Origin: an uncultured archaeon
Lineage (GTDB): Archaea > Iainarchaeota > Iainarchaeia > Iainarchaeales > JAAZKV01
Assembly: GCA_964551375.1 (NCBI GenBank)
Contig: CAZKBG010000002.1
Coordinates: 64,962 to 96,961 of the forward strand
Reading direction: 5' to 3'
Length of the DNA stretch: 32,000 nucleotides
Shown here piece by piece: positions 1-32,000 of the stretch (positions are counted from its first letter, which is position 1; each line of letters starts with the position of its first letter). The notes beneath the pieces are model-generated. The model did no database searches. It was not told where the DNA came from and worked only from the letters and a program-made list of their open reading frames with translations. A program made the position numbers and the translations under genes.

Positions 1-3000
1 TCCCTTACATTAACAACACAATGTTCTTTGAAGCAACTGATGGAAATAACTCACTAAGCGGAGTATTAATCCAAATCAAAAACGGAAAGAACACGCTTGG
101 AAAAGTTGAAACAAGCGGAGAAGGACTTGCAACTTACGAACTTAGCGAGCCAAAACTTGACGATGAAATAACATTTATCGCAAGCAAAGAAGGATATGAC
201 AATGTTGAAGTTACAAAGAAAGTTGACGCTGCGCTACTAACAATAACTCCTCAATCAATATCTGAAACAATCAAAATAGGGGATGTTACTGGACTAACTA
301 CAACAGTAATAATGCAAAATAACACTTCAAAAAATGTGAGACTTGGAAGCGTTCAAATAAACGGGGACATGAAAACTTATATTGACGCAAAATTCATTGA
401 AACATTAGCAGGAACAATAATCGAACAGGGAAAAGACAAAAACTTCACTTTATCACTAAAATTAAACTCAAGCGCAATTAAACTAAAAGCTCCAAAAGAC
501 TTGACTGGAACTGTGGTAATAAACACTGAAATACCAGGGACAAGCGCAGGATACTTAAACGAAATACCAATCTCAATAAGACTTTCAATGCCAGGGTACA
601 TGGATGACGCAAAATGCCTCAAAGTTACTCCTGCAACAATTGACTTTATTACAAGCGATACTGAAGAAAGCAAAACAGTAGTGCTGTCAAATTTATGCAC
701 AGCAGAAGACTTCCAAATCCCGCTTCACGATATATCAGCTAAACTAAATGAAGCAATGAAAGTTGGAACAATAAGCGTAAACGGCTCTGGATTTGCGACA
801 GTAAACCTTGGCGATAAATATGTGAAAATCGCAGACAGCCTTGAAAAAGATTCTGAAACAGAACTAACAATAAGATTCTCTCCAAATTCAGCAGTATCAA
901 GCGGAAAACAAACTGTTACTGTAACAATAATGGGAAAGAATATACTTGACGACAAAACTGAAGAAAAAGTTGAAACAACCCTAAAAGTTAATTCAACAAT
1001 GAACAGCCTTTCAAAATGCATTGAAATAGTAGAGCCATCAGGCGGAATACTGCTTGATATTGCTCCATGGAACTTAGGATACAACAGAATCCAGCAGTCA
1101 AACATGTCAGCATACGCTGGCGGGTACCAAGGATTCACAAATAGAAGCGCTCCATACAATATGTCTTACATGGGCGGAATGGGGATGATGGGATACGGAA
1201 CTAACGGATACGGTTCAGCATACGGCGGATTTAACTCATACGGAATGTACCCAGGAAGCGTAGCAGGCGGCGGAATGCAAAACATGAGCTACCAGCAGAA
1301 TTCATTTATAATAAAGAACAACTGCCAGACAGATGTTGATATAGACCTTGACCCAGATTCAAGAGTTACAGTATCAACTGACAAATTCACACTATCTGCA
1401 AACAGCGACGAAACAGTTACAGTTGATCCGGGATACGTTCTTGGAAAATACAAAATAAAAATAAACGCAAAGCCAAAAGGAACAACAACTTCAATGAAAA
1501 ACCTAAAAGAAGTTTCAGTGACAATAAGAAGACTTGGGGATATGGACACTGACTGCATTAAAACAAATGTAACAACAATTAACCTAAATTCATTCTTATA
1601 CAGGCCTCAGAAATACTCTGTTTTCAATTACTGCTATGATACAGGAGCTGCATTATCAAGAAGCAATGTTGCATCAATTGAATGCTCGGCTCCGCAGAAC
1701 AACAGTCTTGGATTAAATTACTTCCAGCAGGGACAAGAATCATACTACGGCTCAAGCTACCCTCTAAATGGACAGAATGCAACTTACAACAGTTATATCC
1801 AGCCAAGCGGATGCCAGACAAACTCATGCTCATTAATTACAGGAACAAGAGTAAGACAAAGAACTACTGAACAGGGGACAACAGGAACAATAGAAAGAGT
1901 AGACTTTGATGTAATGCCAAGCTCGCAATACATACCGCAGCAGAAATTATTTGACAATAAAGTCGGAAAATACGGAGCATTCCAAAACCTTAGCGCAATA
2001 AGATCATGGGCTACTGAAACCGACGCAAGAACTAATGTTTACGGAAATTTAAATATCAGCTACACAAACCAATACGGTTCGGCTGAATGCATGGAATTCC
2101 CAATCACAATCACTGATGTTTGGAGAATGGGAGAAAGCATAGATTCGGCAATCAACTGGGGAGACCCAACAGCAAGGCCAAAAGACTGCCAAGAAGCTGA
2201 CGCGCTGAATATTACTAAATACTGGGAGAATAAAACTCCAAATAAAGACGGAGTAGTTCCTGACAGCGGAGACGGATTTAATGCACAGGATAGATATGTT
2301 TACATGGCAGAACCGCCAGCGCTAAAAATCGGACCATCGCCGACTCAAAACAGCATGAGTTACCCTTCATCTTACGGAAACAACATGTATGCATACATGA
2401 ATCCTCAATACGGAATGTACAACAACCAGCAGGGCGCTCAATACTATAGTTCAGGAAATGAATCTTATATGAGAGGACAGCCAGCAAATAACGGGAATTC
2501 TGGAAGCGCAACAAAGAACTGCGGACTTCTTGACGGAATTGATGTCAAAACTGTAATCAATCCAAAAGATGCAGGCGGAGCAAAAGTAACAGTAACTGAC
2601 AGAGGAACAGGAAGCATAATCAACAACTCAAGAGGCTCAAACTTAATGGTGGAAATTGACAGAAGCACAATGACAGTTAACTGTGTGCACTTAAACATTC
2701 CAATTACAGCAAAAGTAACAAGATCAATCAACTTTGAATCACAGGACTTGACATGGTTCCTTGATGTAAAATTCGCAAAGAAAGGAATACCTTACAACGA
2801 AGCAGAATGCATGAAGACAACAACAAGCACAGTGACAGACTGCAAAGATGCATTAAGAAGCATACTTCTAAAGAACAACACAAAACAAAACGATGCTGCA
2901 GGAATTGAAGCTGCAATTAAAGAGCTTTTAGACAAGCGACCAGAATGCAGGCAATATGTTGATGTGTCAGTTGCAAATACTATTTTAGGGCAGATTGCTC

Positions 3001-4808: not shown

Positions 4809-4993
4809 ATAAAACTAAATAAAACGCGCGGAAAAACTTTTGTAATTCAAATTTTGCCTAAAACAAAAACAAAACTAATTTAAGAAACTCATTTTGTTGG
4901 ACAAATTAATTTTTGAATCCTTAAATAAACAAGTTTATTAATAAGAAAAAAGATGATGATAAGAGCAGAAAGCTTGATTATTTAGGTGAAAAA

Positions 4994-6064
4994 GTGGATA
5001 ATAGAGTGCTGACATTTGTACTAATAAGCATAATTGCATTCTTGTCAGGCTTTGCCGCTTCATACCTCTTTCCAATTCAAACTCCTTTTGTTGATGTTCC
5101 ATTCAGCGTTCTTGCAATAGGATTAATCCTTGGAGGGGCCGCTTTTTTTGGATATCTTGGCTTTATTCCAGCACTTCTTTTGGGACTCCAGCTGGGCGCG
5201 GAAAAAAACGCGGCAGTATTCATTTACATTGCGCCTGTAATACTTGCAATTTATGCGGGAACTTATATTGGAGTTTTAATAAACAAAGATTTTGAAAGAA
5301 AAGAAATATTTGCAAAAAAAGCAAAAAATATTATTGTAATAGTGGCAATCGCCCTTGTAATATCATTCGCGGTTGAAATGGCGGTGCCGTACACTGTAGA
5401 GTACTGGCCGAAGGATTATCTTGGGATGAGTGTGGGCGGAGGATATATGTCATATGATTCCGATTTGACAGGGGAAAATATTATTTTAAGGGGAGATTCA
5501 TTAACAATTCCAATTGAATTAAAACAAATAGTTGTTGGAAAGAACAATGCTTCCGTGTTTAACACTTCAACGAATGCGATTTTAAAAATAAAAGACGCTG
5601 ATGAAGGCACGCCAGTTTATGGGGCTGAAGTTACTGCCACAAGCCAGAGCGGAAATGAACATGAATTTATTGAAACTTCAAGCGGAATGTACAAAAAAGA
5701 TCAGTTCCCATTCGGAGAACAAGTAACATTAATTGTAAAATCAAAAGGATACGAAGAGTACAATAAAAAAGTTACATTTAACCGCGATATTATAAATGAA
5801 ATCTCGCTTACTCCAGAACCTGTGGGCGAGGAAGCAGAATCAAGCGTTACAATAAGGGTATTTGGAAGCGATGGAAAGACAATAAACCAGGCAAAAGTAA
5901 CTGTTTATAATAAAGAAACATCCGCAACACTCCAAATAGGATACACTCAAAACGGACAAATTACGCTTAAAGCAATGACTGGGACAAGACTGAGAATAGT
6001 TGTTGAAAAAGGAAGCACAGCCGCAGGGCTTATTGGAAAACTTGCGAGCCTTAAAAGAAGATAA
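4994..6064 (+). CDS. Polytopic membrane protein with two C-terminal carboxypeptidase-regulatory-like beta-sandwich domains
   Basis: 356-aa ORF with a GTG start, preceded by an AGGTGA Shine-Dalgarno-like motif at 4984-4989. The N-terminal ~140 aa form 4-5 hydrophobic helices. C-terminal segments (TPVYGAEVTATSQSGNEHEF...VTLIVKSKGYEEY; VTIRVFGSDGKTINQAKVTVYNKET...LRIVVEK) fit the CarboxypepD_reg-like pattern. Confidence 0.8.
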   Translation: MDNRVLTFVLISIIAFLSGFAASYLFPIQTPFVDVPFSVLAIGLILGGAAFFGYLGFIPALLLGLQLGAEKNAAVFIYIAPVILAIYAGTYIGVLINKDFERKEIFAKKAKNIIVIVAIALVISFAVEMAVPYTVEYWPKDYLGMSVGGGYMSYDSDLTGENIILRGDSLTIPIELKQIVVGKNNASVFNTSTNAILKIKDADEGTPVYGAEVTATSQSGNEHEFIETSSGMYKKDQFPFGEQVTLIVKSKGYEEYNKKVTFNRDIINEISLTPEPVGEEAESSVTIRVFGSDGKTINQAKVTVYNKETSATLQIGYTQNGQITLKAMTGTRLRIVVEKGSTAAGLIGKLASLKRR

Positions 6065-6183
6065 TTTTAAAAAAGCATGAAAATTTAGCAAATTGCCAAA
6101 AATTTTGCAAAAATTTTATTAAAATCAAAATTTTTCTCAAAAATTAAAATAAATTGAGTTTAATTGAAGCTTATAGAAAGGTA

Positions 6184-6191
6184 TTTATATA
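6184..6191 (+). promoter_or_regulatory. TATA-like box (TTTATATA) upstream of giant gene 2
   Basis: Archaeal-type TATA motif 49 nt upstream of the ATG at 6240. The giant gene 3 TATA-like box has a similar spacing. No experimental TSS. Confidence 0.35.
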
Positions 6192-6239
6192 GTTGAAACA
6201 TTAATTTTATGGTATCGAGCAAAATACGGACGCATTGAT

Positions 6240-9200
6240 ATGGGCATTGGGGAATCGCTAAAAGGAATATACTATTCTGGCGAAGAAAAGTGGTATGCTT
6301 TCTGGGATAAAGTGGACGCACACATTCCTGTTTACAAAGTAATTGACCCAATTGATTCAGTAATACCGACATTTGCGCTGTTTTTGATTATTATCTTTTT
6401 AATTTTATTATTCGCAGGATATGCGCTTCTTGGCGGAATAGCTCCTGCAACCGCGACTCTAAAACTAAGCGTTGTTGACAGCGACGGAATGGGAGTAAGC
6501 GGAGCAACAGTGACTGTTGAAGGAGTTGATGGCGAATTCTACTCAAACGACTTCGGATTAATTGAAGACTTAATTGTTCCGTTTAATTCAACGCTTGAAG
6601 TAAATGCGGAGAAAGGCGAGAGCAAAACAACAATTCCAATTACAATTGACGAATTTGAAAAAATTGCAGAAGTAGTGCTTCCAGTTGAAAGAATAAGCTT
6701 TGAGCAGAAAACAATAAGATTCCAGAGCGAAGACGGCGCACTAATCCAAAGCGAATTAAGATTACATTACACATGCTCATCAGGAGTGGCTGCTCCTGAA
6801 GATGTTACAATTTACACAGGCAGCGCGAACTTAGCACAGCCTGCAAATTGCGGAACTCTTGAAGTAGAAGTAACTTCATCAAAATACGAAAGAGCAAGAT
6901 TTTCAGTAAGCGGACCATCAGGAGTATTTACACTAAAATTACTTGCGCCGGTTGAAAAAGGACGAGCTACAGTAAACCTAAAATACGAATCAAGATTAAT
7001 CACAGAACAAGTTACAGTTCAGGCATTTAGGGCAGATAATGCATTCCTTCCAGTAAACAGCGCAACAAGCGTAAACGGACAAGTTCAATTTGAACTTCCA
7101 CTTGGGGATTACAAATTCAAATCACTAATGCAAAGCGGGTACAAGCAGAAAGAATCATCAGTAGTTTCAATCACAAAAGCAAATTCAAACCCTGTTATTG
7201 ACTTAGATTTGCAGAAAGAAATAATCGGAGTAATTGTAGTTCAGGCAAAAGAAAATGGAGCTGCCTTAAGCGGAGTTCATATGAGCCTGACAAAAAAACT
7301 TCTAACCAGACAAGAGCCTGTAATTGACAGAGACACAAACGAAGGCGGATATGTTCAATTTGAAATTGCGGAAGACGCAAATTACACAGTAACAGCTACA
7401 AAAGATAATTACTGCGAAGTATCAGTTGCAGTATCAATAGGAGACTCAAGAGTAATCTCAATGAAGCAGAATGACTCAACATGCGGATACAAACTAATTG
7501 CAAGAGTAATAGACCAGGACAATAAGCCGGTAGCTCACGCAAAAGCGGCAATATTCATTGAAACAGCAGAAGATATTTACAAAATGCCAAGAGCAGAACA
7601 AGTAACAGGATACAATGGGGACGCAAACTGGAACCCTGTAAGAAAAACAAACAGCGACGAGAAATTCAAAGTATTCGCATATAAAGCATCATACTCCGGA
7701 TGGAGTGAAGCAAGAGTATTTGACTCGCTATCCTCAAGCACTCCATTTGTTGTAAAACTTGAAATCCCGATGGGAACAGTAAAAGTAATAGCAAAAGACA
7801 GAGACGCTAATCCATTGCAGTTTGCAGAAGTTCAGTTATTTGATGAATACGACGGAACAGCAGTAAGCGGCAGAAAATTAATTGAAAACGCTGACGGCTC
7901 AATTGAATTCAACTTAAAAGCTGACAAGAGAGTTTATGCAGTAGTAAAGAAAGAAGGATACGAATCATACACTACACTTCCAACAATGATGGTTGCAGGC
8001 GGAACAATTACATTTGACGTTGAACTATTCAAGCCACCTGTTCAGGAAATCTTTGTTAGATCGCTTGGATTCTTCAAAAACGGAACACCAGTTCTAAAAG
8101 TAGAGCCAAGCCAGGAATACGACGCATTGTTTGAATTAACTGCCCCTTCAACAAAAACATACTCAGAACTTGGATTCTTTGTAAGAATGGGCGCAGATAA
8201 TATGACTAAAACTGAGCTTGATAAAATATTTATCAAAGATGTAATGGCTTCAGGAGTAAAATCAATAGTAACAGGAGCGACTTACAATAAGCCAATGGGA
8301 TACTATAACACTGACTCAAAATACACTAACCTTGAAGAAAGCAAGTGGGCAGAAATAAAATGGCCAATGAACGGATATGTTCCTGGAAAAATCATAGTAG
8401 GAGTAAAAGTAAAAATCAGGCCAACTGCGCAGGCTGAAGAAAGACTTGAACTTGGATACAGAGCATGGGGCAAAACAACAAGCGGAGTATACGAAAGAGA
8501 CTTAATTGACGACGAACTTGGAACAAGCCAGAGCTCAACAACAAAACAAGAACTTTACGCTTCAACAAAGCCAGATTACATTACAGTTGGAATGGAAACA
8601 CTATGCGATACTCCAGAAAGCGGAAAATCATTCTGTATAACAGCAACTTACACTGATCCAGACGGATTCACAAAAAGCTTCAATGACTCATTTGACACTA
8701 AGAACAATACTCCTTACAATGTTTCAATCAAAATCATGAACAACTCAACAGTTGGATTTGATGACGCAAAAATAATGGTTGAAAACCCTGAAGAAAATTT
8801 ATACATGGGCACAATGACAGCAGTAACTCCAAGATTCTCTCCAAGCGAGATAAACGTAAACGGATACGCTACTGACTGGATTGACATGCCAAGATATGTA
8901 AAGAACTCATCAATTGAAATCCAATCAATGCAATTAACTCCGCAAAAAACAGGGACAGGCACATTGCTTGTAAAAATACGCGAAGGCGCATCAATGATTT
9001 ATGAAAAAGCATTTACAGTAAATATTGCAAGCGACAAGAAATTAACAGTGCGATTCATGAAAGGCGGAGTATTTGGAGACGAAATGCCTAAATTAGTATC
9101 AGGAAAAACTGAACTACTAACAGTTAAAGCATTAAACACAGTAAGCGGATTAGAAGTACAAGACGCAGTAGTAAAATTATTCGACAGATTTGGAACAAAA

Positions 9201-12200: not shown

Positions 12201-14513
12201 TCAGGAAACATAAAATACAACGCAGAAGCATTGAATGCTACAGTTGGAACAGTGGAAGAAAGAGAATTGACATTCACAAACAGCGGAAAACTAATCCAGG
12301 AAAAGAAATGGACTCCGTTTGTAGGATTAATGACAGTAAAAGGACAAGAAAAAATATATGATACTACTTACAAATATGATGAGATTAAGGAAAAAGCAAT
12401 AGAAAGAGGAGACTACGAAGAAGAAGACGGGTTCTTTGACAACTTCTTCTCAGGACCAAACAATGTAGGCGAAATAGCGCAAATAGCCGACTCTGATATT
12501 GATGTTAACTCGGTAAGATCATACGAAAAGAAATTCCACTTGCTGTTTGAAGCATGGCAGTACGTTGATTGCGGACCAAGAACATACGCTTGCCCAATAA
12601 AACAAAACGTAAGCTGTGACGTGGATGGAAAGAAAGGAGTAACAGGACCTGAAGGAGTTCCAAGAATATTACTTGACTGGACTTGGGGCGGAGTAGCAAA
12701 GAATGAATGCGACTCGGATGTAAAAAGCACAGGCGACAGATCAGCTTCATACAATTACTGCGACACAACACAATTGACAATTTCAACACTAAAGAAACTA
12801 AGCGAACTAAGGGATTTCTTCTCAAGCCCGACTTACTACTCAAACTTACAGTGCCCAAAAGCAATTGACATAGCAGGAACAAAGACACAAAAATTAAGCG
12901 AAACAGCAATTGATATTGGAATAACAAGCATACAAATGATACCAAATGAAAACGGCGCAACAATAGAAACAATTGTTGAAACAACAAATAATGTTCCAAT
13001 GCAGGCAAAAGTAGCATTCACTTTAACTCGAGCTGACGGCAGCGCAGTTAACGCAAACTGCCCTGAAGAGACAAAAACAATAACAAGCAGCGGCAAATTC
13101 ACTTGCACTGTTACACAAACAGGAACAGGAAGCATTGGAGTAGGAACATTCAATGTAGTTGCAGTCATGACTCCAACAATAGTAGCTGGAGTAGAGGATA
13201 ATGTTGCAAGCAATAATATAATTACAGCTTCACTAATAATGGGAAGCACAGGCGCAGCGCAGTGCCTTGGATACAGCACACAAAAAGAAGTGCTTGAAAA
13301 AGTATTCGCAGCAAGTTCAGCAGGCGGAACAAATGTGCTTGAATCAAAGAAATACCTGCTTGAAGATGTGTCATTTAAAGCAAACTTAATCAGAGACGGA
13401 TTCAGTAAAGACTTCAAGGAAGACTTTGACGCATGGGCAATGCAGATACTTGCATCAGCTCCTGAATACAATAACTTAAGAGAATTATTCTTAAGCGACA
13501 AATTCAGCGTAAAATGGCCAACAAAAGGAAGCTCTCCATGGGACGCAGGCAAGTACGACGCTAAATTAGTTGTAACATTCAAAGACAACTGGAAATGGGA
13601 CTACAATAATATTGAATCAGTAGTTCTTGATTTGTCACCACAGGGCGCTCCAGACCCAGACTTTACAATATACAATGTTCCATTTGACGGAATGATTGGA
13701 ATTAATTCTGATGACGGAAGACAAGGATACGGAGCAGATTACGTTCAAAAAACTGAAGACATATTCCAAATAGCTGAAACTGCTGGAAATGTTGTAGCAC
13801 AGCCAAAAGCAGGAAGCAACGCAGCAACAAGAGTAAATATGTCAGTAATTAAAGGAACAAATGCATTCACATTACTAAACAGCTCTCCAACAAGAGGAAA
13901 TGTATTAAGCATTTATAGAATCGGAGACGATGTTGATTTCACAATCACTCCAAGCCTTGCAGTGCCGGTAATACTTGATATTGAAAGAAAAGCAGAAAGC
14001 GATGCAGCAGCATTCTACACTGCAGAAGTAAACGGACAGCCGCAAGAAACAGGAACAAGCTTTATCTCATGGACTGGAATCGGACAGGGATGCGTTGCAT
14101 TTGACGGAACAAGCATGACACAGTACTATAATACTCCTGATTACAAAGCAAATTCATGCTTCATTGGATATGACGGATACGGACTATGCTGGCCAATGGC
14201 AAAAGTATCAGGAAAATCATCCTTCTACGGACAATTCTTCGCTCCACAGGACACAGTAACAGTTCTAAAAGTTACAGGCTCTAAAGGAACAGCAGGATTT
14301 TACACTACATTTGGAGAAGGCACAACAATACAAGTTGGAACAACAGGCAGCGAAATAAGAACGCTTGAAAAAGTGCTTGCGCTTGTAAAAGAAAAGAAAG
14401 TATGTGTAATCGGCGGAGACTACTACTGGAATAATTCTGAATTCACAGGCGACACTGAGTTCAAATCACAGATGAACGCCCGCGAAAACACATGCATTGA
14501 CAAAAGACCTTAA
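6240..14513 (+). CDS. Giant membrane-anchored surface protein, paralog 2 (2757 aa)
   Basis: Uninterrupted 8.27-kb ORF. The N-terminus has the conserved motif KGIYYSGEEKWYAFWDKVD followed by a hydrophobic anchor (TFALFLIIIFLILLFAGYALLGG). At least 6 CarboxypepD_reg-like repeats (e.g. GTVKVIAKDRDANPLQFAEVQLFDEYDG...VVKKEGYESY). Cys-bracketed Ig-like modules (CLEVTKTMWD...RNNC; CVVLGADELT...NNNC). Two internal Gly-rich hydrophobic segments flank a coiled-coil/Ser-Thr-rich region. The C-terminal module is shared with paralogs 1 and 3. Confidence 0.92.
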   Translation: MGIGESLKGIYYSGEEKWYAFWDKVDAHIPVYKVIDPIDSVIPTFALFLIIIFLILLFAGYALLGGIAPATATLKLSVVDSDGMGVSGATVTVEGVDGEFYSNDFGLIEDLIVPFNSTLEVNAEKGESKTTIPITIDEFEKIAEVVLPVERISFEQKTIRFQSEDGALIQSELRLHYTCSSGVAAPEDVTIYTGSANLAQPANCGTLEVEVTSSKYERARFSVSGPSGVFTLKLLAPVEKGRATVNLKYESRLITEQVTVQAFRADNAFLPVNSATSVNGQVQFELPLGDYKFKSLMQSGYKQKESSVVSITKANSNPVIDLDLQKEIIGVIVVQAKENGAALSGVHMSLTKKLLTRQEPVIDRDTNEGGYVQFEIAEDANYTVTATKDNYCEVSVAVSIGDSRVISMKQNDSTCGYKLIARVIDQDNKPVAHAKAAIFIETAEDIYKMPRAEQVTGYNGDANWNPVRKTNSDEKFKVFAYKASYSGWSEARVFDSLSSSTPFVVKLEIPMGTVKVIAKDRDANPLQFAEVQLFDEYDGTAVSGRKLIENADGSIEFNLKADKRVYAVVKKEGYESYTTLPTMMVAGGTITFDVELFKPPVQEIFVRSLGFFKNGTPVLKVEPSQEYDALFELTAPSTKTYSELGFFVRMGADNMTKTELDKIFIKDVMASGVKSIVTGATYNKPMGYYNTDSKYTNLEESKWAEIKWPMNGYVPGKIIVGVKVKIRPTAQAEERLELGYRAWGKTTSGVYERDLIDDELGTSQSSTTKQELYASTKPDYITVGMETLCDTPESGKSFCITATYTDPDGFTKSFNDSFDTKNNTPYNVSIKIMNNSTVGFDDAKIMVENPEENLYMGTMTAVTPRFSPSEINVNGYATDWIDMPRYVKNSSIEIQSMQLTPQKTGTGTLLVKIREGASMIYEKAFTVNIASDKKLTVRFMKGGVFGDEMPKLVSGKTELLTVKALNTVSGLEVQDAVVKLFDRFGTKLFEATTNKLGVATIQIPASLPGERLVLSIEKSEYETVRKDIVIAEDVVSVDPTSLNFTVNPQSKLTDMKTVKITNETAIDLYIKSITLTGKLKGVLDEASISAWFENFKGKKIKSQDYEEVVFKVASAAVVPTAEDLEGTFNITLISQGKEWVKEIPAKIRVGLGKDVDNQSCLEVTKTMWDTTTRGAQVEASFELRNNCTVNGAPVILKNIGATVSQSTTVTGTFNAQSKNIQVELGSAFARIFKTSMDKGEKVPVTIKFTPMPGSAGIATGSIIFEALNNTDSKAQKLTAEMKYNIIYENLQDCVVLGADELTIEEEGSGTFTVNNNCKSKVDVILRPQDLQGSINNTDFKLNAGENKEVTVKSYKGQIAGAYNVVLEARSTGASLEPVANIKVIIEPKSSCFKLTRYVYDIFDYEDSVNPFDGIDRGYLINNCVTKNVTAKVTGTIPYDSSAILKTMLWGGLVGGVTAYFKTGKFWPDSWFNKKDPKVSSNIQTGYTDVAHAQRSELTRVSTEMQTAKETNYGQIDAKLKALKKQADDTNAKVVNRYNLNRAECEKISANPADASRIACLTKATSIKADAQAIITKQYAAAETDINALREKLKKAEAEFSTQLKASGEKMDSYTEQQRSNASFQVGQGTINNEKANREMDATLRANISNLRNEMNAKIDAWNGYRSDFMNTLYKKYEKLDLSDVEKQKNNKITADAAKPEKYSLTTAALDAVTVDKVEEKEFSTAPAITAIDTTKSGPSQIASNGLASTNATTVTATDVITSSDGYTLIKDDGTNPSAAPADYQPMNSLTSNIGRYYRNPESLIVRPTGNDSYTVTRNDGQLIGTWSYNNSVWTETIDSSTNYYDSSFNHLKKNAKVDGFFLLATSGTGASTGSTSSSGSNSNQSSGMNAILNGVIGYGAGSVMPNGLGGALAGALTTGFMQWMQAQDTTVNYKDTFEMNWIEFVSATLDSPSGVKMDVGEAMYDYETYYGTTVTGSTVSETTNATYSGNIKYNAEALNATVGTVEERELTFTNSGKLIQEKKWTPFVGLMTVKGQEKIYDTTYKYDEIKEKAIERGDYEEEDGFFDNFFSGPNNVGEIAQIADSDIDVNSVRSYEKKFHLLFEAWQYVDCGPRTYACPIKQNVSCDVDGKKGVTGPEGVPRILLDWTWGGVAKNECDSDVKSTGDRSASYNYCDTTQLTISTLKKLSELRDFFSSPTYYSNLQCPKAIDIAGTKTQKLSETAIDIGITSIQMIPNENGATIETIVETTNNVPMQAKVAFTLTRADGSAVNANCPEETKTITSSGKFTCTVTQTGTGSIGVGTFNVVAVMTPTIVAGVEDNVASNNIITASLIMGSTGAAQCLGYSTQKEVLEKVFAASSAGGTNVLESKKYLLEDVSFKANLIRDGFSKDFKEDFDAWAMQILASAPEYNNLRELFLSDKFSVKWPTKGSSPWDAGKYDAKLVVTFKDNWKWDYNNIESVVLDLSPQGAPDPDFTIYNVPFDGMIGINSDDGRQGYGADYVQKTEDIFQIAETAGNVVAQPKAGSNAATRVNMSVIKGTNAFTLLNSSPTRGNVLSIYRIGDDVDFTITPSLAVPVILDIERKAESDAAAFYTAEVNGQPQETGTSFISWTGIGQGCVAFDGTSMTQYYNTPDYKANSCFIGYDGYGLCWPMAKVSGKSSFYGQFFAPQDTVTVLKVTGSKGTAGFYTTFGEGTTIQVGTTGSEIRTLEKVLALVKEKKVCVIGGDYYWNNSEFTGDTEFKSQMNARENTCIDKRP

Positions 14514-14605
14514 TTAATTAAAAGGTTTTTCAAAATTTAACCCTAAAAAATCACAAAATTATTTTTTTGGGCAGTGCAAACAAAGATTTTTGCGCATGAA
14601 TAATG

Positions 14606-14613
14606 TTTAAATA
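14606..14613 (+). promoter_or_regulatory. TATA-like box (TTTAAATA) upstream of giant gene 3
   Basis: Archaeal-type TATA motif 46 nt upstream of the ATG at 14659, within a 145-nt AT-rich spacer after the stop of giant gene 2. Confidence 0.35.
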
Positions 14614-14658
14614 CAACAAAATCGTTCTTTTAATGAAATAACCAAAAAGTGTTGCACC

Positions 14659-17600
14659 ATGGCTGATGGAATAAAGGGAGTTTACTATGCTATTGAAGAT
14701 AAATGGTACGCTTTCTGGGACTCGGTTGACAGAGTTCTTCCAGTAGGCGGAGTAATTGACGCAATTGACACAGTAATTCCAAGCATGATACTTTTTATTT
14801 TAGTAATAATACTATTAATCGCATTTGGCGCATTCTTTTTACTAAGCGCAAACCAAGTATTTGACGCGACATTCACAGTTCAGACATTTGACGGCAGACC
14901 AGTGAATGACACTCTTTTAAGCGTTGAATTAATGGAAAATGGGGAGCTTGTAAAAACATTTGAGCAAAGAACTGATTCAGTTGGAGTTGTTACATTTAAT
15001 GCAATAAAGATGGGGCAGGAACTGATTTTTGATATTAACATAAGCAAAGGAACATTCAGCGGCTCATTTGTTATGGGCGAAGGCGCAATGGATGAAGTAA
15101 TAACGCTTGAAGAAAGAAGAGTGCCGCTAAATCTTTCCCCAGTTGTGAAAAAAATACTTGTAAAAGAATCAAGCGGATTTTTAGCAAGAGAACCTATTTC
15201 ATTAGTTTTTGGATGCGAATCATCAATTGTTCTTCCAAACCCATCAAAAGCAACTTTTTCAGGAACATTTGCAGTTGAAGTAACTGAACCAGTTGGATGC
15301 CGTTTAACTGCGACAGTAAATAATCCAAAGTACAAGCAGAAGACTTATTTAATTCAGTCGACAAATTATGATTTATTCCTTGAGCCAATAGAGCCGGTTG
15401 GAACACAATTAAAAGTAATAATCCGCTCTGCAGGATTTCCTGTAAGCGGAACAAATTTTAAAATAAAAATAACAGGAGACGCTAGTTACGAACTTGCAAC
15501 AACAGGCGAATCACAGGCAAGCGCAAATGTTAACCCCGGAAATTACTTAATCACTGTTACTGACCCAAAAGGAAATTATGGTTTAGTATCCAAAAATGTT
15601 ACTGTCACTTCAACAACAGAAGTTTTGGTGGAAGTATCAAAAACTGTAAAAGCACGGGCTACTATAAAAGTAATTGACAGCGAAACAGGCGTTGCAATTT
15701 CAAACGCAATTGTAAATTTAAGAGATTCATTTGGAAGAGAACTTGCAACTCAATTAACTGATAGCCTTGGATATACAACATACAGCTTTACTGATTTAGG
15801 CGATTATTCATTCATTGCTAAAAGAGCAGGGGACCTTAACGGAGGATACCTTCCAAAGGAATCGAAACAGACAATTTCAACTGATACAAATTTTACAATG
15901 GCGCTTGAGGCAATTACAGAAGAAAATGCAGGGAGAACAATTGTTACTGTGTACGATCAGGACAAAGTTCCAGTAGCAAATGCAAAAGTAATGCTGAAGT
16001 ACAAAGAAAATGACGGGCTTGTTGAACTAATGCAGGAGAAAAATTACGGACTAACTGACGCAAACGGAGAAGTATCACTAATTGCTGGACAGCCTTCCGG
16101 TTCAGTGTACGCTTACGCAATAAAAGGACCGTTTAACGGAGCATCAATGGACAAAAGGCTTGCAGTTGAAGCAATAAACAAATTTAATATCGAAATGGAA
16201 ATAGGAAGCGCAACAGTAAAAATAAACGTGCTTGACGAATCAGGAAACAAACTTGACGCAACAGCAGAAATACACTTAGTAAGCGGAGTGAGCGCTGATG
16301 AACACGGAATAGCTGGACTAATACCTGTTGAAAGCGGATATGCAGCAAGAAGCGTAAAAGCAGGACAAAAAGTATTTGTAAAAGTAATGGCTGAAACATT
16401 CGAAGACTATTACACAGCCCCAATTGATTTATGGCCTGACAGACCATATGACCTTGAAATTGTGATGCTGAAAAATATAGCTGAAGCAAAAATACTTCCA
16501 AAAGGAGTGTATAATGCAGACGGCGCTTTAGTTCAAACAATGGCTGCAGGAAAGAGATATTATGCTAAATTTTACATCTTATCAAACAGCGCATATGCAA
16601 ATGTAAAATTTAATTTCAGAGCGGGAAAAGAATCACTCCTTGAAAATGACATAATGGAAGTTGATGAAGTAGAAGCAAGCGGACTAACTTCACAGGCAAG
16701 AGGAGTAAGCTATGATCCTCAAAAAGGATATGATTTTGACGGAAATATTCTAAACCGAACAGACGGACTCTCAAAATGGGTTGAAATGGAATGGACTTCA
16801 TTTGGAAAAGGACTAAGAGAAGTAAAAGTATGGTTTAGAATAAAAAACACCGCTGCTCCAAACCAAGAACTTCAATTCTTCTACCGTGGAAAGTTTGATA
16901 ACTTAAGAAAACCTGAAAGCACTGCAGCGCTTGACTTTTACGCAGACACTTATTTCTCAGAAAAATTCTACGTTGGAGCAGAAACAATCTGCAAAGAGGG
17001 CTTCTGTGCAAACTCTGAATGGCTGTACTCCACAAAAAGCGAGCTTTACGTTGACGAACCTTACTCAATAAAACAGACAACAAATTACAATTATCACATA
17101 ACTTTACTTAACAATTCCGGAATTGACTACGGAACTTCAAAAAAACCAGTGACTTTGTCAATTTACGTGATGGGCGATGATTCTGACGACAAGAAAATCA
17201 AAATCAAAAGCTATGAAATAAAGGACTCCATTGGAAGGCTTACAAATAACTCCGCAATATACAGCGCTGAGAACTTATCCATTACTTCATTTGAGAAAAG
17301 CTCCACAATTGACATGCTTTTCAGCCTTGAAGGAATAAAACAGGGCGCAGAAGCGCTTAAGTTTGAGTTAAAATCAGAAGGAAAAATAATTTACTCAAAA
17401 GAAACTGACATAAAAGTTGTGAGAGAAAAAGACTTTAATGTTGGAATATCTCCTCAATTCATCCCTGCTTTGATTAACACAATGATAGAAGTTACAATAG
17501 TGGATGAAAAAGGCGAACCGCTTCCAGGCGCAACAGTAAATGTTTATGCAAAAGAGCCAGGATACGCGCAGTACCCGATTGATTCAAAAGAAACCGACAG

Positions 17601-20600
17601 GCTTGGAAGAGCTGAAGTAAAATCAGGAGCGCATTTTACAAAAACAAAAGTTATAATTGAAATAATAAAAGAAGGATACTCAAGACAAATGTTCTCAACA
17701 ACTGTTTCGGACGATTTAATCATTGCGTCTCCAGAAGAGCTGTTTGTTGAATTAAACACATTTTCAAAAAGAGAAGAAGTTAAAAAAGTTGAATTCGCAA
17801 ACCTTTCAAGAAGCAAAATGGTGCTAAAAAATATAGTTCTTGACTCAAAGTTCAAAGACTTGATAAATGAAGAAGCATTAAACGCATATTTTGAAGAACT
17901 GACACTTGAACAAAAGACAGTGAAGGGAGAGGACACGCTTGAAATAGAATTTATGAAAATAAGGCTTGCGAATTCAATTAACGAAGATAATTTCATTGAA
18001 CCTATTACTGTAGAAGGAATTGTAAAATTAGTATTTGTAGAACCTGAATCAGGGCTTACATTCAATATAGAACTTCCACTAAGAGTAAATGTATCCTCAA
18101 GCGCAAATCCAGACGCTGAATGCCTGATAATAAAACCAACAAGCAAAACAAGCATGACAACAGAAAACGCGCAGGTTAGATTTAATTTTGAATTAATCAA
18201 CGCATGCACTTCAGACGGAGTAGGAATACCTCTTCAATCGCTAATGGTGCAAGCTCCTGCTGAAATACCAGGAATTGCTGAAATAAGCCTAAGAAACTCA
18301 ACAGGCTCCTCAATTGGAATTACAGCTCTTGACGGCGGAAAAAGAAAATTAGTGGATAATGTCCGCGCAAACGAAAAATTATTCGGCGAAATAACATTTG
18401 CTCCAGGCCAAGAAGCGGTTGGCAAATCAGTACAGATTGCAGTTTCGTACGAAGCAAAGTTTAAGGGAACTACAGTAACAAGCAGTCCTTCAACAGTGAC
18501 TTATACAGCAAATGTAGTAAACCTAAAAGAATGCATGACAATAAGCTCCGAATCAGCTCCTGTTGAATTTAAGGGCAAATCAAAAATCAAAATTGACACA
18601 ACAGCATGCCTTGGGCAAATGATTGACATAATACTTTGCAAAGAAGATTCAGGATGCTCGGGTGGAGCGGACGGTAAAATTGTTTTAAGCAAAAAAACAT
18701 TCACACTTCAAAACAAAGCAGAAGAAATTGAAGCATATAATCCAACATACCCTGGAACTTACGGCGTAACAGTGCACGCAAGAACCAGAGGAACAGCAGG
18801 ATTCTCATACATAGGCGAAGTGCCTGTATCTTTCCTTGAATCTGAAACTAAATACTTCAACTTAAACAAATTTGAATTAACTTTAGTTGGAACAGGCGCA
18901 AAGGACTCAATCATACTTACAAACAAAATGATTTCAGAAACTATAAATGTAAAAGCGGATGAATGCACCTGGGGAAAAGAAGACGCAGAATTTAACTGGT
19001 CAAGCGCATTAACAGGCGCAATGATGGGCGCAATGCTTGGAAACCTAATTGGCTCTGCATACCACCCTGGAACAAAAGACAGCAAAAGCGGGAAAGACAA
19101 AAGTGGCGGAAGCGATGTTGAAGGGATGGACGCAAAAACAAGAGGTGAGGAAATCAGCAGATTAAATGACCTTGAAGCAAAGGGAGGGTTAAGCAGGGAC
19201 CAAGTAGCATATAGAAATGACTTAATCAGCGCGCAAAATAGATTTACAACAGGATATGATTCTTTTATCAACGGCGCAACTGCGCTTAATACGGGAGTGG
19301 ATGTAAGTTCAAGCTCTTCACTATCTTCAGTATTTGGCTCAGGCTCAGCAGCAAGCCTTGGAGTAGGAGAATCAACAACAATGGATACTGAAATGGGAAC
19401 AGTAAGAGTAACAAATATGGGAAACAATGAATACTTTGTACGCTCAAACAGCATTCCTTCAGGAAGAACATACACGGGGGATGTGCAGCTTGGAACAGTT
19501 GGAAATCAATTCGCAAATGCTTATTCAAATACTTCAGGACTTAGAAATTTCTCAAATTCACTTACAATGCCTTTTAGAACCACTCCAAGCACAACAACAT
19601 TAAATCCTTCAACAACAGGGTGGTCAGCTGCGACATATGGGGAAGTTGGACGAATACCAACAAGATATTTTGTTAACCTTCCTGCAATAATACATGCGCA
19701 GGAAAATGCATTGAAAGCAGATTCAAATAAATTATTATTAGCTGGCTCGGGCGGAAGTAGCACAAACTGGGTTCAAATATCACTAACAATAATCGGAGCA
19801 GTAGTTGGCGGATGGCTAATGGGCGACTCAGGATACAAATGCGCTGATAATTACGATGTTGTTCCAATGGAAGACTTTGTAATACTACTTCAGGGAACAA
19901 CAGTTGACTACACAGGACCGACAGGCGAAACAAGCGGAGAAAGAGTAATACCATCAGATGCAGGAGCATTAACATTTACTCTGGACAATATTGCTCCAGC
20001 ATGGAACTTTGAAGACGCGCAGTACGGATCTGAAGAAACTGTTGCAATTGACTTCGAAAATAACGGACTCAACGAGCCTGTTCCAAGATACGGCACATTC
20101 ACTGTGAATGCAAATGTACACAACCATGGAAGCGTAGTTCACAAAGTTGACGGAAGCACTCACACAAGCACTGGAGAAAGCGATTATGATGTATTCTGCA
20201 ATAACGAATCATTTGGAAGCTTTTGGATAGGCTCTGAAAGCAATCAGGGAGACTGCGGAACAGGCGGGAGAATTTCAGTAAGCAATTATTCTCAGAAGTA
20301 TCATTTAAGAGTAATCAGCGGAGAGCCAAAGGATGAAGAATCTTACATTAAGAAAGCAACAACATGCTATATGGGAGCTCTAACTGGAGCAACAGGAAAA
20401 GAAGCATTGCCAAAAGTAAAACTTGACTGGACATGGGACTCAATTAAAGCAGATACATGCGATTACACAAATCCTGACCACGTTTATTGTGACGGAACTC
20501 AATTCATGATTTCACTTACAAAGAAACTATCTCAGCTTCAGAAATTCATGAGAACAAACGGGGGCAAATTTGAATGTCCTCCTGACGAAATAGAAAATGA

Positions 20601-22275
20601 AGTGCAGAATGCAATTGAAGAAGTTAATTCAAAAGTGAATGAAGTTCCTGACGGATTTATCGGAATATCTGATATATCCTTGACTCTTGATGTTGTTACA
20701 GGGGAAGCAGTTCCTACAATAAAAATAAACAACAGGTCGGGAAAAGTTGAAACATCATACTTAAGCTTTGCATGGAAAGGACAGGGCGAAGCAACTCCAG
20801 AATACCCAAGCAATGTAATTGAATGGGATGTTCCAATCGGAGAAAGCACAAGAGTACTTGACTCAGTAGTAGTTTCAAAATATGAAGGAGTATATTACTT
20901 CACAGCAGTAATGAACGGACCGATGGGAGACTCAAGATCATTATCAAGAGCATTCCTATATAGAGACACAAACGGAACCTGCTGGATGCCGCAGACAACA
21001 GATTCAATTGCAGGACTTCCAGGACTTGCATTCTACGTAGCAGCAATGGACAACCCTACTTACACTGAAGGGGTAAGCGATCCGTCAGAATTGTACAATC
21101 ACATAAACTTTGGAATGTACCTAACAAAAGAAACATTTAGTGAAGACTTCCTAAGAGACTTCAAGGATTATTACGGAGGGGGCATACTCCAAATATCAGA
21201 TCCTGACGAGCAGGATATTGTAAATTACTTAACATCAGGAAATTTTAAGATAAAGAAAAAATTCTCGGGAGACAACACAATTGAGCCTGGACTTTATGAT
21301 GTTTGGGTAAGATTAAACGCAAAAGACAAATTCCTTGTAATTGACGGAAACAATACAAATATGACAATAGAACTTTTAATGATTAGAAGACCAAGCGTGG
21401 ACAGTCCGTTTTACATGATACCATTTGATGGAAGACTTGGAGAAAGAGGCGGAAGACAAGGATACGGAGCAGTTTACACAAGAGGGGAAGGCGAAAGCGA
21501 CATTGAAATAAGCAATTACAGCCAGAATGGAGTTTATACTTTCTACAATGCGGCAAGCAATGGTGTAATAAAAGTTACAACAAAAACAAAAACAAGCTTT
21601 GAAGGTGTAAACTCATCAGTATCAACAAGAGGACAGCTTGGAGCGGTAAGCGTGTCAGGCTCAACAGCAGAAATGATACTCACTCCAAATTATGCGACTC
21701 CTGTAATTTTAAAGAACACAATTGACGGCACAGAAGGAAACATTGCATTCAGCGTTGAAAATCCAAACAGAGCAGTTGTTACAAGAGGAAATATAGCATA
21801 CTGGACAGGCGCTGCAAAAAGCAAAGATTACTTTGGAGCAAACGCAGTTGAATCATATTATAATTCGCCTGACTTTAGACTATCAAAACTCGGAGAGAAC
21901 GTATTCGGATTTGAATACAGAAACATTTCAAAGAAAGGCACAATGTACCTAAAAACCACTTTATTCACTCCAGTGGATCAGGCATCATACATGCTTACTT
22001 CAAAGAACAGCACTACAAAATTCTGGACTCCTGAAACAACATTCACTGAAACAGTTGACTTAAAAGGAATAAGCGGAATGGCTTACAATGCGCCAGGCGA
22101 TTACATTAACTCATTGCAGGATTTATTCACAGCAGTTGAAAATAATGAAGTGTGCCTGTCAAATGACGGCTCAAGCACCACATTCTGGTGGAACCCAGTT
22201 GCTATTGAAGGAACTGTGGGCTCGCTTGGAAGAAGCTTATACCACGAAGAAGTTGCATTAGTTGGAGTGAACTAA
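14659..22275 (+). CDS. Giant membrane-anchored surface protein, paralog 3 (2538 aa)
   Basis: Uninterrupted 7.6-kb ORF. The N-terminal KGVYYAIEDKWYAFWDSVD motif plus anchor (MILFILVIILLIAFGAFFLL) is colinear with paralog 2. Multiple CarboxypepD_reg-like repeats (ATIKVIDSETGVAISNAIVNLRD...; RTIVTVYDQDKVPVANAKVMLKY...; VTIVDEKGEPLPGATVNVYAKE...). A GxxxG-zipper segment GAMMGAMLGNLIG starts at the same residue number (1447) as the equivalent segment in paralog 2. C-terminal motifs shared with paralog 2: LDWTW, C..TQ...KKLSQL, PFDGRLGERGGRQGYGAVY. Confidence 0.92.
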   Translation: MADGIKGVYYAIEDKWYAFWDSVDRVLPVGGVIDAIDTVIPSMILFILVIILLIAFGAFFLLSANQVFDATFTVQTFDGRPVNDTLLSVELMENGELVKTFEQRTDSVGVVTFNAIKMGQELIFDINISKGTFSGSFVMGEGAMDEVITLEERRVPLNLSPVVKKILVKESSGFLAREPISLVFGCESSIVLPNPSKATFSGTFAVEVTEPVGCRLTATVNNPKYKQKTYLIQSTNYDLFLEPIEPVGTQLKVIIRSAGFPVSGTNFKIKITGDASYELATTGESQASANVNPGNYLITVTDPKGNYGLVSKNVTVTSTTEVLVEVSKTVKARATIKVIDSETGVAISNAIVNLRDSFGRELATQLTDSLGYTTYSFTDLGDYSFIAKRAGDLNGGYLPKESKQTISTDTNFTMALEAITEENAGRTIVTVYDQDKVPVANAKVMLKYKENDGLVELMQEKNYGLTDANGEVSLIAGQPSGSVYAYAIKGPFNGASMDKRLAVEAINKFNIEMEIGSATVKINVLDESGNKLDATAEIHLVSGVSADEHGIAGLIPVESGYAARSVKAGQKVFVKVMAETFEDYYTAPIDLWPDRPYDLEIVMLKNIAEAKILPKGVYNADGALVQTMAAGKRYYAKFYILSNSAYANVKFNFRAGKESLLENDIMEVDEVEASGLTSQARGVSYDPQKGYDFDGNILNRTDGLSKWVEMEWTSFGKGLREVKVWFRIKNTAAPNQELQFFYRGKFDNLRKPESTAALDFYADTYFSEKFYVGAETICKEGFCANSEWLYSTKSELYVDEPYSIKQTTNYNYHITLLNNSGIDYGTSKKPVTLSIYVMGDDSDDKKIKIKSYEIKDSIGRLTNNSAIYSAENLSITSFEKSSTIDMLFSLEGIKQGAEALKFELKSEGKIIYSKETDIKVVREKDFNVGISPQFIPALINTMIEVTIVDEKGEPLPGATVNVYAKEPGYAQYPIDSKETDRLGRAEVKSGAHFTKTKVIIEIIKEGYSRQMFSTTVSDDLIIASPEELFVELNTFSKREEVKKVEFANLSRSKMVLKNIVLDSKFKDLINEEALNAYFEELTLEQKTVKGEDTLEIEFMKIRLANSINEDNFIEPITVEGIVKLVFVEPESGLTFNIELPLRVNVSSSANPDAECLIIKPTSKTSMTTENAQVRFNFELINACTSDGVGIPLQSLMVQAPAEIPGIAEISLRNSTGSSIGITALDGGKRKLVDNVRANEKLFGEITFAPGQEAVGKSVQIAVSYEAKFKGTTVTSSPSTVTYTANVVNLKECMTISSESAPVEFKGKSKIKIDTTACLGQMIDIILCKEDSGCSGGADGKIVLSKKTFTLQNKAEEIEAYNPTYPGTYGVTVHARTRGTAGFSYIGEVPVSFLESETKYFNLNKFELTLVGTGAKDSIILTNKMISETINVKADECTWGKEDAEFNWSSALTGAMMGAMLGNLIGSAYHPGTKDSKSGKDKSGGSDVEGMDAKTRGEEISRLNDLEAKGGLSRDQVAYRNDLISAQNRFTTGYDSFINGATALNTGVDVSSSSSLSSVFGSGSAASLGVGESTTMDTEMGTVRVTNMGNNEYFVRSNSIPSGRTYTGDVQLGTVGNQFANAYSNTSGLRNFSNSLTMPFRTTPSTTTLNPSTTGWSAATYGEVGRIPTRYFVNLPAIIHAQENALKADSNKLLLAGSGGSSTNWVQISLTIIGAVVGGWLMGDSGYKCADNYDVVPMEDFVILLQGTTVDYTGPTGETSGERVIPSDAGALTFTLDNIAPAWNFEDAQYGSEETVAIDFENNGLNEPVPRYGTFTVNANVHNHGSVVHKVDGSTHTSTGESDYDVFCNNESFGSFWIGSESNQGDCGTGGRISVSNYSQKYHLRVISGEPKDEESYIKKATTCYMGALTGATGKEALPKVKLDWTWDSIKADTCDYTNPDHVYCDGTQFMISLTKKLSQLQKFMRTNGGKFECPPDEIENEVQNAIEEVNSKVNEVPDGFIGISDISLTLDVVTGEAVPTIKINNRSGKVETSYLSFAWKGQGEATPEYPSNVIEWDVPIGESTRVLDSVVVSKYEGVYYFTAVMNGPMGDSRSLSRAFLYRDTNGTCWMPQTTDSIAGLPGLAFYVAAMDNPTYTEGVSDPSELYNHINFGMYLTKETFSEDFLRDFKDYYGGGILQISDPDEQDIVNYLTSGNFKIKKKFSGDNTIEPGLYDVWVRLNAKDKFLVIDGNNTNMTIELLMIRRPSVDSPFYMIPFDGRLGERGGRQGYGAVYTRGEGESDIEISNYSQNGVYTFYNAASNGVIKVTTKTKTSFEGVNSSVSTRGQLGAVSVSGSTAEMILTPNYATPVILKNTIDGTEGNIAFSVENPNRAVVTRGNIAYWTGAAKSKDYFGANAVESYYNSPDFRLSKLGENVFGFEYRNISKKGTMYLKTTLFTPVDQASYMLTSKNSTTKFWTPETTFTETVDLKGISGMAYNAPGDYINSLQDLFTAVENNEVCLSNDGSSTTFWWNPVAIEGTVGSLGRSLYHEEVALVGVN

Positions 22276-22386: not shown

Positions 22387-22806
22387 ATGATTCTATCTTT
22401 GCTCACTTTGGGGCTTTCAAGCATTACCCCCCCGATTCTCTTCTTTGACGAGCTGATTGGGGACATGACTTTTGTTCTAAAAATATTTGTTCTAATGACA
22501 ATAGTATCTTATGTTGTCCAACACCTTGGGAAAGGAGTTTTAGCGCTTCTTGTAATTGCAGTAATGTCCTGGTTCATTATATTTGACTACTTCATGTACT
22601 TTGGCGGAATTTATATTTTATACATGTTAGCTCTGTTCGGCGGAGTACAGCTTGCAATGGATTTCTTTATTGTTGGTCCTCAGATGTTTGCCGGCGGACA
22701 CGGCGGCGGAGGCCACGGAGAAAGCGAAGGCGAGCACATTACAGGGTTGGAATTCAAAGAAAAACAGCACAGGATGATGGAAATGAGAAAGAGGGCTGGA
22801 TTCTAA
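22387..22806 (+). CDS. Small polytopic membrane protein with Gly/His-rich C-terminal tail
   Basis: 139 aa with about 4 hydrophobic helices. The tail is GGHGGGGHGESEGEH followed by a basic end. Its stop overlaps the next start (TAATG at 22804-22808). Confidence 0.75.
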   Translation: MILSLLTLGLSSITPPILFFDELIGDMTFVLKIFVLMTIVSYVVQHLGKGVLALLVIAVMSWFIIFDYFMYFGGIYILYMLALFGGVQLAMDFFIVGPQMFAGGHGGGGHGESEGEHITGLEFKEKQHRMMEMRKRAGF

Positions 22807-27184: not shown

Positions 27185-27280
27185 AAATAACACACATTAG
27201 TAAAATTAACCTGGCTATTATTAAATAGGTTTTGATACTTAAAAATGTATTGTATGCAGAAAGAAAGAAAAGAGAAAGCA

Positions 27281-31996: not shown

Positions 31997-32000
31997 TTTC

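Follow-up and report, generated by a model that had tools for sequence, protein, structure and literature searches.

What do three enormous open reading frames (ORFs), lying one behind the other in a small archaeal genome, contribute to the cell that carries them? The question arises from a 32,000-nucleotide (nt) stretch of contig CAZKBG010000002.1 (hereafter the window), in which all the giant ORFs are on the plus strand. An earlier note on this DNA had described three consecutive giants and a 356-residue gene, separated by short AT-rich spacers and amounting to about 20.7 kb of coding sequence in a small-genome archaeon. The ORF coordinates bear this out: the giants, here called G1, G2 and G3, sum to 20,697 nt in the window and the AT-rich spacers measure 145-185 nt. 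The organism is a DPANN archaeon whose relatives are named Iainarchaeum, Diapherotrites and Micrarchaeota, the closest genomes being in contigs of ~1 Mb. Two things had been missed. G1 is cut by the window edge, a 100% identical database protein (P0018) of 2525 residues representing its full length, and the array belongs to a longer conserved gene cluster that runs to ~27.2 kb in the window; in all, ~23 kb of this small genome encodes G1, G2 and G3. As judged from their sequences, the three appear to belong to a lineage-specific family of giant cell-envelope proteins, as paralogs that diverged long ago and are not redundant. The role we favour for them, with about an even chance of being right, is a structural or adhesive one in the envelope, as parts of a heteromeric surface structure with an accessory base. 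The array is laid out as follows.

3..4808, plus strand: G1 (type A), the C-terminal 1601 residues of a 2525-residue giant; ORF listed as 21..4808, frame open to base 3
4994..6064, plus strand: S356, 356 residues, between G1 and G2
6240..14513, plus strand: G2 (type B), 2757 residues
14659..22275, plus strand: G3 (type B), 2538 residues

Paralogy and architecture of the giants

BLASTP aligned G2 with G3 over residues 1-1400 (E 8e-58) and again over the C-terminal ~650 residues (E 2e-32), and the window part of G1 with residues 966-1294 of G2 (E 3e-15); with full-length G1 the alignments reached E 6e-57 against G2 and E 8e-44 against G3. As this similarity lies outside low-complexity sequence, the claim that the giants are true paralogs is upheld. 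Positional orthologues in other genomes can be assigned to each of them separately, in a strict 1:1:1 relationship, and summed bit scores are ~2000-2700 within orthologue groups as opposed to 150-400 between paralogs. The triplication is therefore older than the split of these lineages, and every copy has been kept. Outside a loop described below, identity between orthologues is even, at ~50%.

Could such ORFs be an assembly artefact, or pseudogenes in decay? We found no point for this explanation and consider its probability negligible. The frames are uninterrupted, synteny is conserved and full-length orthologues of similar size recur in dozens of independent assemblies (17 G3-type and 35 G1-type homologues), which effectively refutes it. 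The coding strand of the giants has a marked excess of A over T, and since this skew is so strong (AT skew 0.15-0.36), the minus-strand ORFs of 150-250 residues found inside the giant genes (9551-10090, 12505-13588 and 17544-19475) are most likely by-products and not real genes. TATA-box-like octamers, TTTATATA (6184-6191) and TTTAAATA (14606-14613), precede the start codons of G2 and G3 by ~55 nt and suggest that each giant has its own promoter; the count of TTTAWATA boxes across the whole window was not above chance.

Within G2 and G3 the following parts can be told apart.

6240..6434, plus strand: G2 N-terminal motif (G.S.K..YY..EEKWY.FWDKVD..IP) and transmembrane helix 1
10563..10619, plus strand: G2 Gly-rich hydrophobic segment A, residues 1442-1460
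10620..11900, plus strand: G2 variable loop, residues 1461-1887
11901..12011, plus strand: G2 Gly-rich hydrophobic segment(s) B, residues 1888-1924
12510..14510, plus strand: G2 conserved C-terminal domain, residues 2091-2757
14659..14853, plus strand: G3 N-terminal motif and transmembrane helix 1
19003..19059, plus strand: G3 Gly-rich hydrophobic segment A, residues 1449-1467
19060..19770, plus strand: G3 hypervariable low-complexity loop, residues 1468-1704, ~240 residues
19771..19824, plus strand: G3 Gly-rich hydrophobic segment B, residues 1705-1722
20275..22272, plus strand: G3 conserved C-terminal domain, residues 1873-2538

The giants begin with a motif of ~45 residues, G.S.K..YY..E[DE]KWY.F.D.V....P....D..D..IP[ST]F, which is followed by a very hydrophobic helix and a small-x-Ala|Thr junction, an AxA-like A|T site. 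The motif had been noticed in G2 and G3, correctly, and it extends to G1, whose copy lies outside the window together with its transmembrane helix and is seen in the full-length protein. A looser form recurs family-wide, and a strong N-terminal transmembrane helix was found in 16/16 G3-type proteins, 29/30 G1-type proteins and 89 of the 92 family representatives of at least 2200 residues.

The ~1400 residues after this helix consist, in all three giants, of weakly detectable CarboxypepD_reg or immunoglobulin (Ig)-like β-sandwich sequence. The domain vocabulary proposed from the letters alone was thus recovered by Pfam, with CarboxypepD_reg matches in G2 (E 6.8e-10) and G3 (E 5e-6) and weak matches to bMG3, Big_1, SpaA and MG4. 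Measured against the PF13620 gathering threshold of 32.3 bits, G2 (39.6) and S356 (33.5) score above and G3 (27.1) below, and a scan of the window part of G1 gave no PF13620 match. Internal repeats were not detected by BLAST in the giants, and this, together with the weakness of the Pfam matches, agrees with a series of highly diverged β-sandwich domains; these would number ~14, an estimate from ~1400 residues at ~100 residues per domain and not a count, and a fully stretched chain of that many would measure an estimated ~50 nm. The same repeat vocabulary is shared by CarboxypepD_reg, prealbumin-like and bacterial Ig-like adhesins and by archaeal S-layer-like proteins, and NCBI labels the homologues 'carboxypeptidase-like regulatory domain-containing protein'; the giants, however, reach significance in only one or two domains per protein, and their N-terminal motif, Gly-rich segment pair and C-terminal domain occur in no described family. 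Bacterial alpha-2-macroglobulin was rejected (no thioester CxEQ motif, with bMG3 and MG4 below threshold), and the giants are not recognisable as archaeal S-layer glycoproteins either, there being no S-layer match in Pfam or NCBIfam, no PGF motif and no C-terminal transmembrane helix. Searches of the giants for a cell-wall sorting signal, an ATPase domain and a conserved Walker A motif likewise found none.

Behind the β-sandwich region, G2 and G3 carry a pair of Gly-rich hydrophobic segments enclosing a loop. The earlier note had placed a Gly-zipper hydrophobic segment at an identical residue number in the two proteins; the segment is indeed present in both, although its positions (1442-1460 and 1449-1467) are close and not identical. 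In the G3 loop, identity to orthologues falls to 11%, as opposed to 42-57% in all other regions of the protein, while the G2 loop (~430 residues) has a first part that is rich in K, E, A and Q and looks coiled-coil-like by eye and a tail rich in S, T, N and G. Gly-rich segments are present in 14/16 members of the G3 family and in 74/92 family representatives, and are missing in 28/30 members of the G1 family.

G1 itself has no mid-protein hydrophobic segments, and its C-terminal half is strongly diverged. BLASTP detected no pairwise similarity between its C-terminal ~1000 residues and G2 or G3, and a search of PDB sequences with the C-terminal half returned nothing. It does retain a terminal motif, TL..L...EG..C...DG...WN, and alignment of family profiles with hhalign links the last ~180 residues of the G1 type to those of the G2/G3 type (Prob 69%, E 4.5e-5), with weak support for a C..TQ/KKL helix (E 0.02). 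Because the terminal motif and the weak helix match are all that is shared in this half, and the Gly-rich pair is missing, we regard G1 as a distinct subtype and not simply as a reduced copy.

A C-terminal domain with a large family

The C-terminal domain of G2 and G3 (~670 residues) has ~60 invariant residues, many of them Cys (six), Trp and Gly, and is marked by the motifs LDWxW, CDY...YCD.TQ, GGRQGYG and a terminal C...WWN. An ordered set of C-terminal motifs had been proposed for all three giants, with only part of the set in G1. The set holds for G2 and G3, the only two with YxxKxHL, LDWTW, CxxTQ, KKLSxL and PFDG...GRQGYGA, whereas G1 keeps the tail motif and, weakly, C..TQ/KKL; the spacing of the proposed patterns was slightly off.

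No match to the domain was found in Pfam or NCBIfam, and a profile search of PDB sequences came back empty. An AlphaFold2 (AF2) model (predicted local distance difference test, pLDDT, 65) shows a β-rich fold that includes two long helices; Foldseek searches of PDB and BFVD with it retrieved generic Ig-like or fibronectin type III (FN3) sandwiches alone (TM-score about 0.1, E>=2e-3). We conclude that this is, by sequence and predicted structure, an undescribed domain without a detectable relative of known fold. In light of the Pfam, NCBIfam, PDB-sequence and Foldseek searches, the statement that no characterised family covers the whole architecture was well founded, and a full-text search of the literature found no description of the giant family or of its gene cluster.

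The many invariant polar and aromatic residues of the domain (H, D, Q, R, Y, W, C) raise the thought of an enzyme displayed at the surface, either a polymer-degrading hydrolase or a protease, in which case the giants would be nutrient-scavenging exoenzymes on long stalks; the weak Foldseek matches do fall on β-sandwich accessory domains of glycoside hydrolases. We consider this improbable, as those matches are Ig-like sandwiches only and no catalytic domain was matched in Pfam, NCBIfam, PDB sequences or BFVD.

The family is large. An exhaustive hidden Markov model (HMM) search with the domain profile gave 768 clusters, formed at 50% identity, with E<=1e-3, of which 456 had E<=1e-30; among its best 150 matches the domain always sits at the extreme C-terminus of proteins of 2200-3250 residues. 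The source labels are Candidatus Diapherotrites, Ca. Iainarchaeum and Ca. Micrarchaeota. A related-locus search with the domain alignment returned close relatives only.

A conserved neighbourhood with a HerA-like protein

Downstream of G3 the window continues with a block of small membrane proteins, two coiled-coil proteins on the opposite strand and a protein of HerA-like fold, followed directly by genes for a DNA polymerase and an aminopeptidase.

22387..22806, plus strand: m139, small polytopic membrane protein, 63-68% identical in three related loci (L001-L003)
22806..23132, plus strand: m108, small protein with four transmembrane helices, 50-75% identical in orthologous loci
23252..23512, plus strand: m86, small membrane protein
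23623..23943, plus strand: m106, small membrane protein
23950..24294, plus strand: m114, small membrane protein, N-terminal transmembrane helix or helices and a soluble tail
24463..24960, minus strand: cc165, conserved coiled-coil protein
25160..26638, plus strand: p492, HerA/VirB4/TrwB fold, 492 residues
26693..27193, minus strand: cc166, conserved coiled-coil protein, 59-63% identical in orthologous loci
27245-29806: PolB, family B DNA polymerase, 853 residues
29913-30812: type-2 methionine aminopeptidase, 299 residues

Among related contigs long enough to show gene order (L001, L002, L005-L008, L010, L011 and L014), the order G2-G3-m139-m108-m86-m106-m114-cc165(minus)-p492-cc166(minus) is kept in all, even where the C-terminal domain of G3 is only 37-42% identical. 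The small transmembrane proteins are 50-79% identical to their orthologues and, in the closer genomes, at least as conserved as PolB; PolB and the aminopeptidase keep their place in most related contigs, where they are 57-70% identical. Scans of the downstream cluster proteins with Pfam, NCBIfam and PADLOC gave no assignment, the best Pfam match of the small transmembrane proteins being to an unrelated family and below threshold (E 4e-4), and among themselves these proteins show at most marginal similarity (E 0.002 between m108 and m139, with a tiny database). At 22806 the m139 stop codon runs into the start codon of m108 (22803-22809), and only 6 nt separate m106 from m114; both arrangements suggest translational coupling within the block.

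S356, inside the array, belongs to the same class of small proteins by its N-terminal domain (residues 1-150), which has four transmembrane helices and is conserved; the orthologues are 154-166 residues long (L001, L002 and L016). Its C-terminal ~200 residues (residues ~151-356; 5444-6064) are CarboxypepD_reg-like and restricted to this genome and one close relative; this part is a lineage-specific fusion to, or extension of, a conserved four-helix protein.

Immediately upstream of G1, and outside the window, lies a conserved gene for a 488-residue protein (L004, 836-2302), with a 498-residue orthologue in the more distant genome L016 (8300-9796); the N-terminus, with ..QRGFNMFSAIVAVLLIMAG.., looks like the class III (type IV pilin-like) signal peptides of archaea, and the protein has no Pfam match. 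In L016 a fourth giant of 2771 residues (1-7541) precedes the 498-residue gene and G1. It gives a faint CarboxypepD_reg match alone, and its last 900 residues are without similarity to G1-G3; no G3 follows G2 in this genome, a PIN-domain gene standing there instead. In L014, Laminin_G_3 (LamG) proteins of 646 and 1077 residues are encoded at 11502-13442 and 16827-20060, by genes inserted beside the HerA-like one and behind PolB, and add further proteins of surface type to this neighbourhood. In the window itself, at its right end, ARAGORN and Rfam agree on tRNA-Arg(GCG) (31589-31661, minus strand) and tRNA-His(GTG) (31924-31997, plus strand), and a 207-residue ORF (30858-31481) has a K/R-rich N-terminus and no Pfam match and was not detected in the related loci examined.

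For p492, the mechanically called ORF starts with a TTG at 25088 (516 residues); the identical database protein P0053 and the orthologues start at a Met 24 codons later (25160), giving 492 residues. Its AF2 model (pLDDT 83) combines an N-terminal β-barrel (HAS-barrel) with a RecA-like core, and the top Foldseek matches were HerA (4d2i, E 3e-10), VirB4 and TrwB. The predicted fold is therefore that of the hexameric P-loop ATPases; in contrast to them, p492 has no Walker A motif (GxxxxGK[ST]) and an incomplete Walker B motif (hhhhDE). In 25/25 aligned orthologues GK[ST] is missing at the P-loop position, which varies, and of Walker B only an Asp is invariant, with no catalytic Glu after hhhhD. 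Since the P-loop is lost in every aligned orthologue, p492 is most likely a catalytically dead scaffold of the FtsK-HerA fold, and we regard it, from sequence and model, as a probable pseudo-ATPase. The p492 of the window has no match in Pfam, NCBIfam or PADLOC and an empty profile search of PDB sequences, a precomputed PF01935 (DUF87) match exists for one orthologue, and a metagenome scan with the p492 profile yielded one short contig. HerA-based defence systems (Sir2-HerA, DUF4297-HerA) were rejected, there being no PADLOC match.

These neighbours bear on a prosaic explanation, that the giants are ordinary S-layer or sheath subunits and the downstream genes unrelated housekeeping ones, the HerA-like and coiled-coil genes serving DNA metabolism. 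In its favour, the archaeal HerA of DNA-end resection typically combines this fold with a HAS-like barrel, the coiled-coil genes are on the opposite strand, and PolB and the aminopeptidase stand immediately downstream in most loci. Where insertions part PolB from the cluster, however (ATP-binding cassette (ABC) transporter and Trk genes in L005, a LamG gene in L014), p492 stays with the giants and the small transmembrane genes. It cannot be a DNA translocase, because Walker A is missing, and no NurA, Mre11 or Rad50 gene lies nearby. The giants match no S-layer family in Pfam or NCBIfam, and three paralogs of 2500 residues would be atypical, S-layers being made of one or two proteins (PMC5744192). 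On balance we hold this explanation to be rather unlikely.

A proposed structural coat or a possible contact machine

The combination of giant Ig-like proteins with a HerA-like protein has a precedent. SPEARE proteins of Nanohaloarchaeota are single proteins of 6000-9400 residues with a Sec signal peptide, ~75 Ig-like domains and a helix crossing the membrane near the C-terminus; they carry a well-conserved VirB4/TraG ATPase domain in cis, and a second, active-looking VirB4 gene follows downstream (Hamm et al. 2019; La Cono et al. 2023, PMC10266531). Compared by description and not by direct sequence, they are the closest analogue of the present giants. Both come from DPANN archaea and take up a large share of a ~1 Mb genome, both are membrane-anchored with a huge ectodomain made mostly of tandem Ig-like β-sandwiches, and both are linked genetically to a module of the FtsK/HerA/VirB4 superfamily and to coiled-coil elements. 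Here, in contrast, there are three paralogs of ~2500 residues with an N-terminal anchor, a unique C-terminal ectodomain and no ATPase domain, the HerA-like protein being separate and without a P-loop. As to an ATPase in cis, no Pfam ATPase was matched in the giants, Walker-A-like strings occur only at non-homologous positions of the ectodomain, and the C-terminal domain gave no match to a P-loop fold. As there is no ATPase in cis and the protein in trans lacks its P-loop, the present family is not a member of the SPEARE group.

The precedent nevertheless invites a reading in which the locus is a SPEARE-like or type IV secretion system (T4SS)-like machine for contact with a host or partner cell, as the earlier note had surmised. 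The giants would bind the other cell through their stalks and C-terminal heads, and the small transmembrane proteins would form, with the HerA/VirB4-like ring, a conduit for the exchange of macromolecules or metabolites. That the organism is a DPANN archaeon, that one locus unites giant Ig-like proteins, a VirB4/HerA-fold protein and several small transmembrane proteins, that a hypervariable loop lies between glycine-zipper-like segments and that a pilin-like gene stands upstream of G1 all speak for it, as does the pairing of a cis VirB4/TraG domain with a downstream VirB4 gene in SPEARE loci. However, with no P-loop in any aligned p492 orthologue the cluster encodes no energy source, scans of the cluster found no VirB6, VirB2 or VirD4 signature, and even identity outside the loop with strict orthology is unlike the typical fast-evolving adhesins of host interaction. 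Some Iainarchaeota, moreover, are predicted to be free-living. We therefore treat the contact machine as a serious but doubtful proposal. Two related systems were set aside: type IV secretion or Ced-like DNA transfer (the P-loop is lost, and the small transmembrane proteins, which would have to supply the VirB6/CedA-type components, have no significant Pfam match), and the putative archaeal secretion or S-layer system of arCOG01314, whose defining members are a DUF4350 protein, an AAA+ ATPase of MoxR type and vWA proteins (Makarova et al. 2015; PMC5898192). The latter resembles our locus in being a predicted membrane complex of Ig-like, S-layer-type proteins and small membrane proteins with 2-5 transmembrane helices, but no DUF4350, MoxR or vWA domain was matched by Pfam in the scanned ORFs of the window.

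We favour a structural or adhesive role in the envelope because orthology is strict, conservation is even at ~50%, the position is one of the core genome and the cluster encodes no energy source; the first three of these features fit such a role at least as well as they fit host contact. A location of the giants at the cell surface is well supported by their predicted features. In the arrangement we envisage, the N-terminal segment would stay in the cytoplasm, with helix 1 acting as a signal-anchor or as a very long signal peptide, and the exported β-sandwich domains would form an extended extracellular stalk. G1, G2 and G3 would then join in a heteromeric surface structure (a coat, fibril or adhesive canopy), whose membrane-proximal ends may be assembled on, or anchored to, a base in which the small membrane proteins are combined with a ring of inactive HerA-like subunits. 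Structure or adhesion would be the chief function, and ATP-driven transport would not.

Several observations weigh against the structural or adhesive arrangement. The hydropathy of the Gly-rich segments is borderline (1.2-1.8), a family-wide positive-inside test of the Gly-rich pair was not significant (p=0.89 and 0.14), and N-glycosylation sequons are not enriched in the giants. Small genomes that rearrange slowly can keep a gene order even when the genes are not functionally coupled and, since the HerA-like gene and cc166 adjoin PolB in most loci, these two might serve DNA metabolism.

A bolder scheme, which we regard as a long shot, would join all the parts: G1-G3, the six small membrane proteins, both coiled-coil proteins and the HerA-like ring without its P-loop would make up a new envelope-spanning apparatus of Iainarchaeota and Micrarchaeota, the glycine-zipper hairpins and their hypervariable loop entering a second membrane, be it an outer one or that of a partner cell. 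In the micrarchaeon ARM-1, cryo-electron tomography revealed two structures of unknown molecular identity, the S-layer and a 21-nm barrel-like platform for the docking of host nanotubes (PMC11329633), and the apparatus could be either of the two.

That DPANN archaea possess giant β-sandwich surface proteins is already known; what is new here is the C-terminal domain, the three-paralog organisation and the conserved accessory cluster. The locus thus defines a large uncharacterised family with a fixed architecture, an ancient layout of three paralogs and a strictly conserved neighbourhood that includes an inactivated HerA/VirB4-like protein, and it suggests that giant β-sandwich proteins are coupled to FtsK/HerA-fold modules outside Nanohaloarchaeota too. 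Giant Ig-like surface proteins are a recurring and poorly understood hallmark of ultra-small DPANN archaea, and for one DPANN branch, in which surface structures are visible in images but not assigned to genes, this cluster is a concrete, testable candidate for the apparatus of the envelope or of cell contact.

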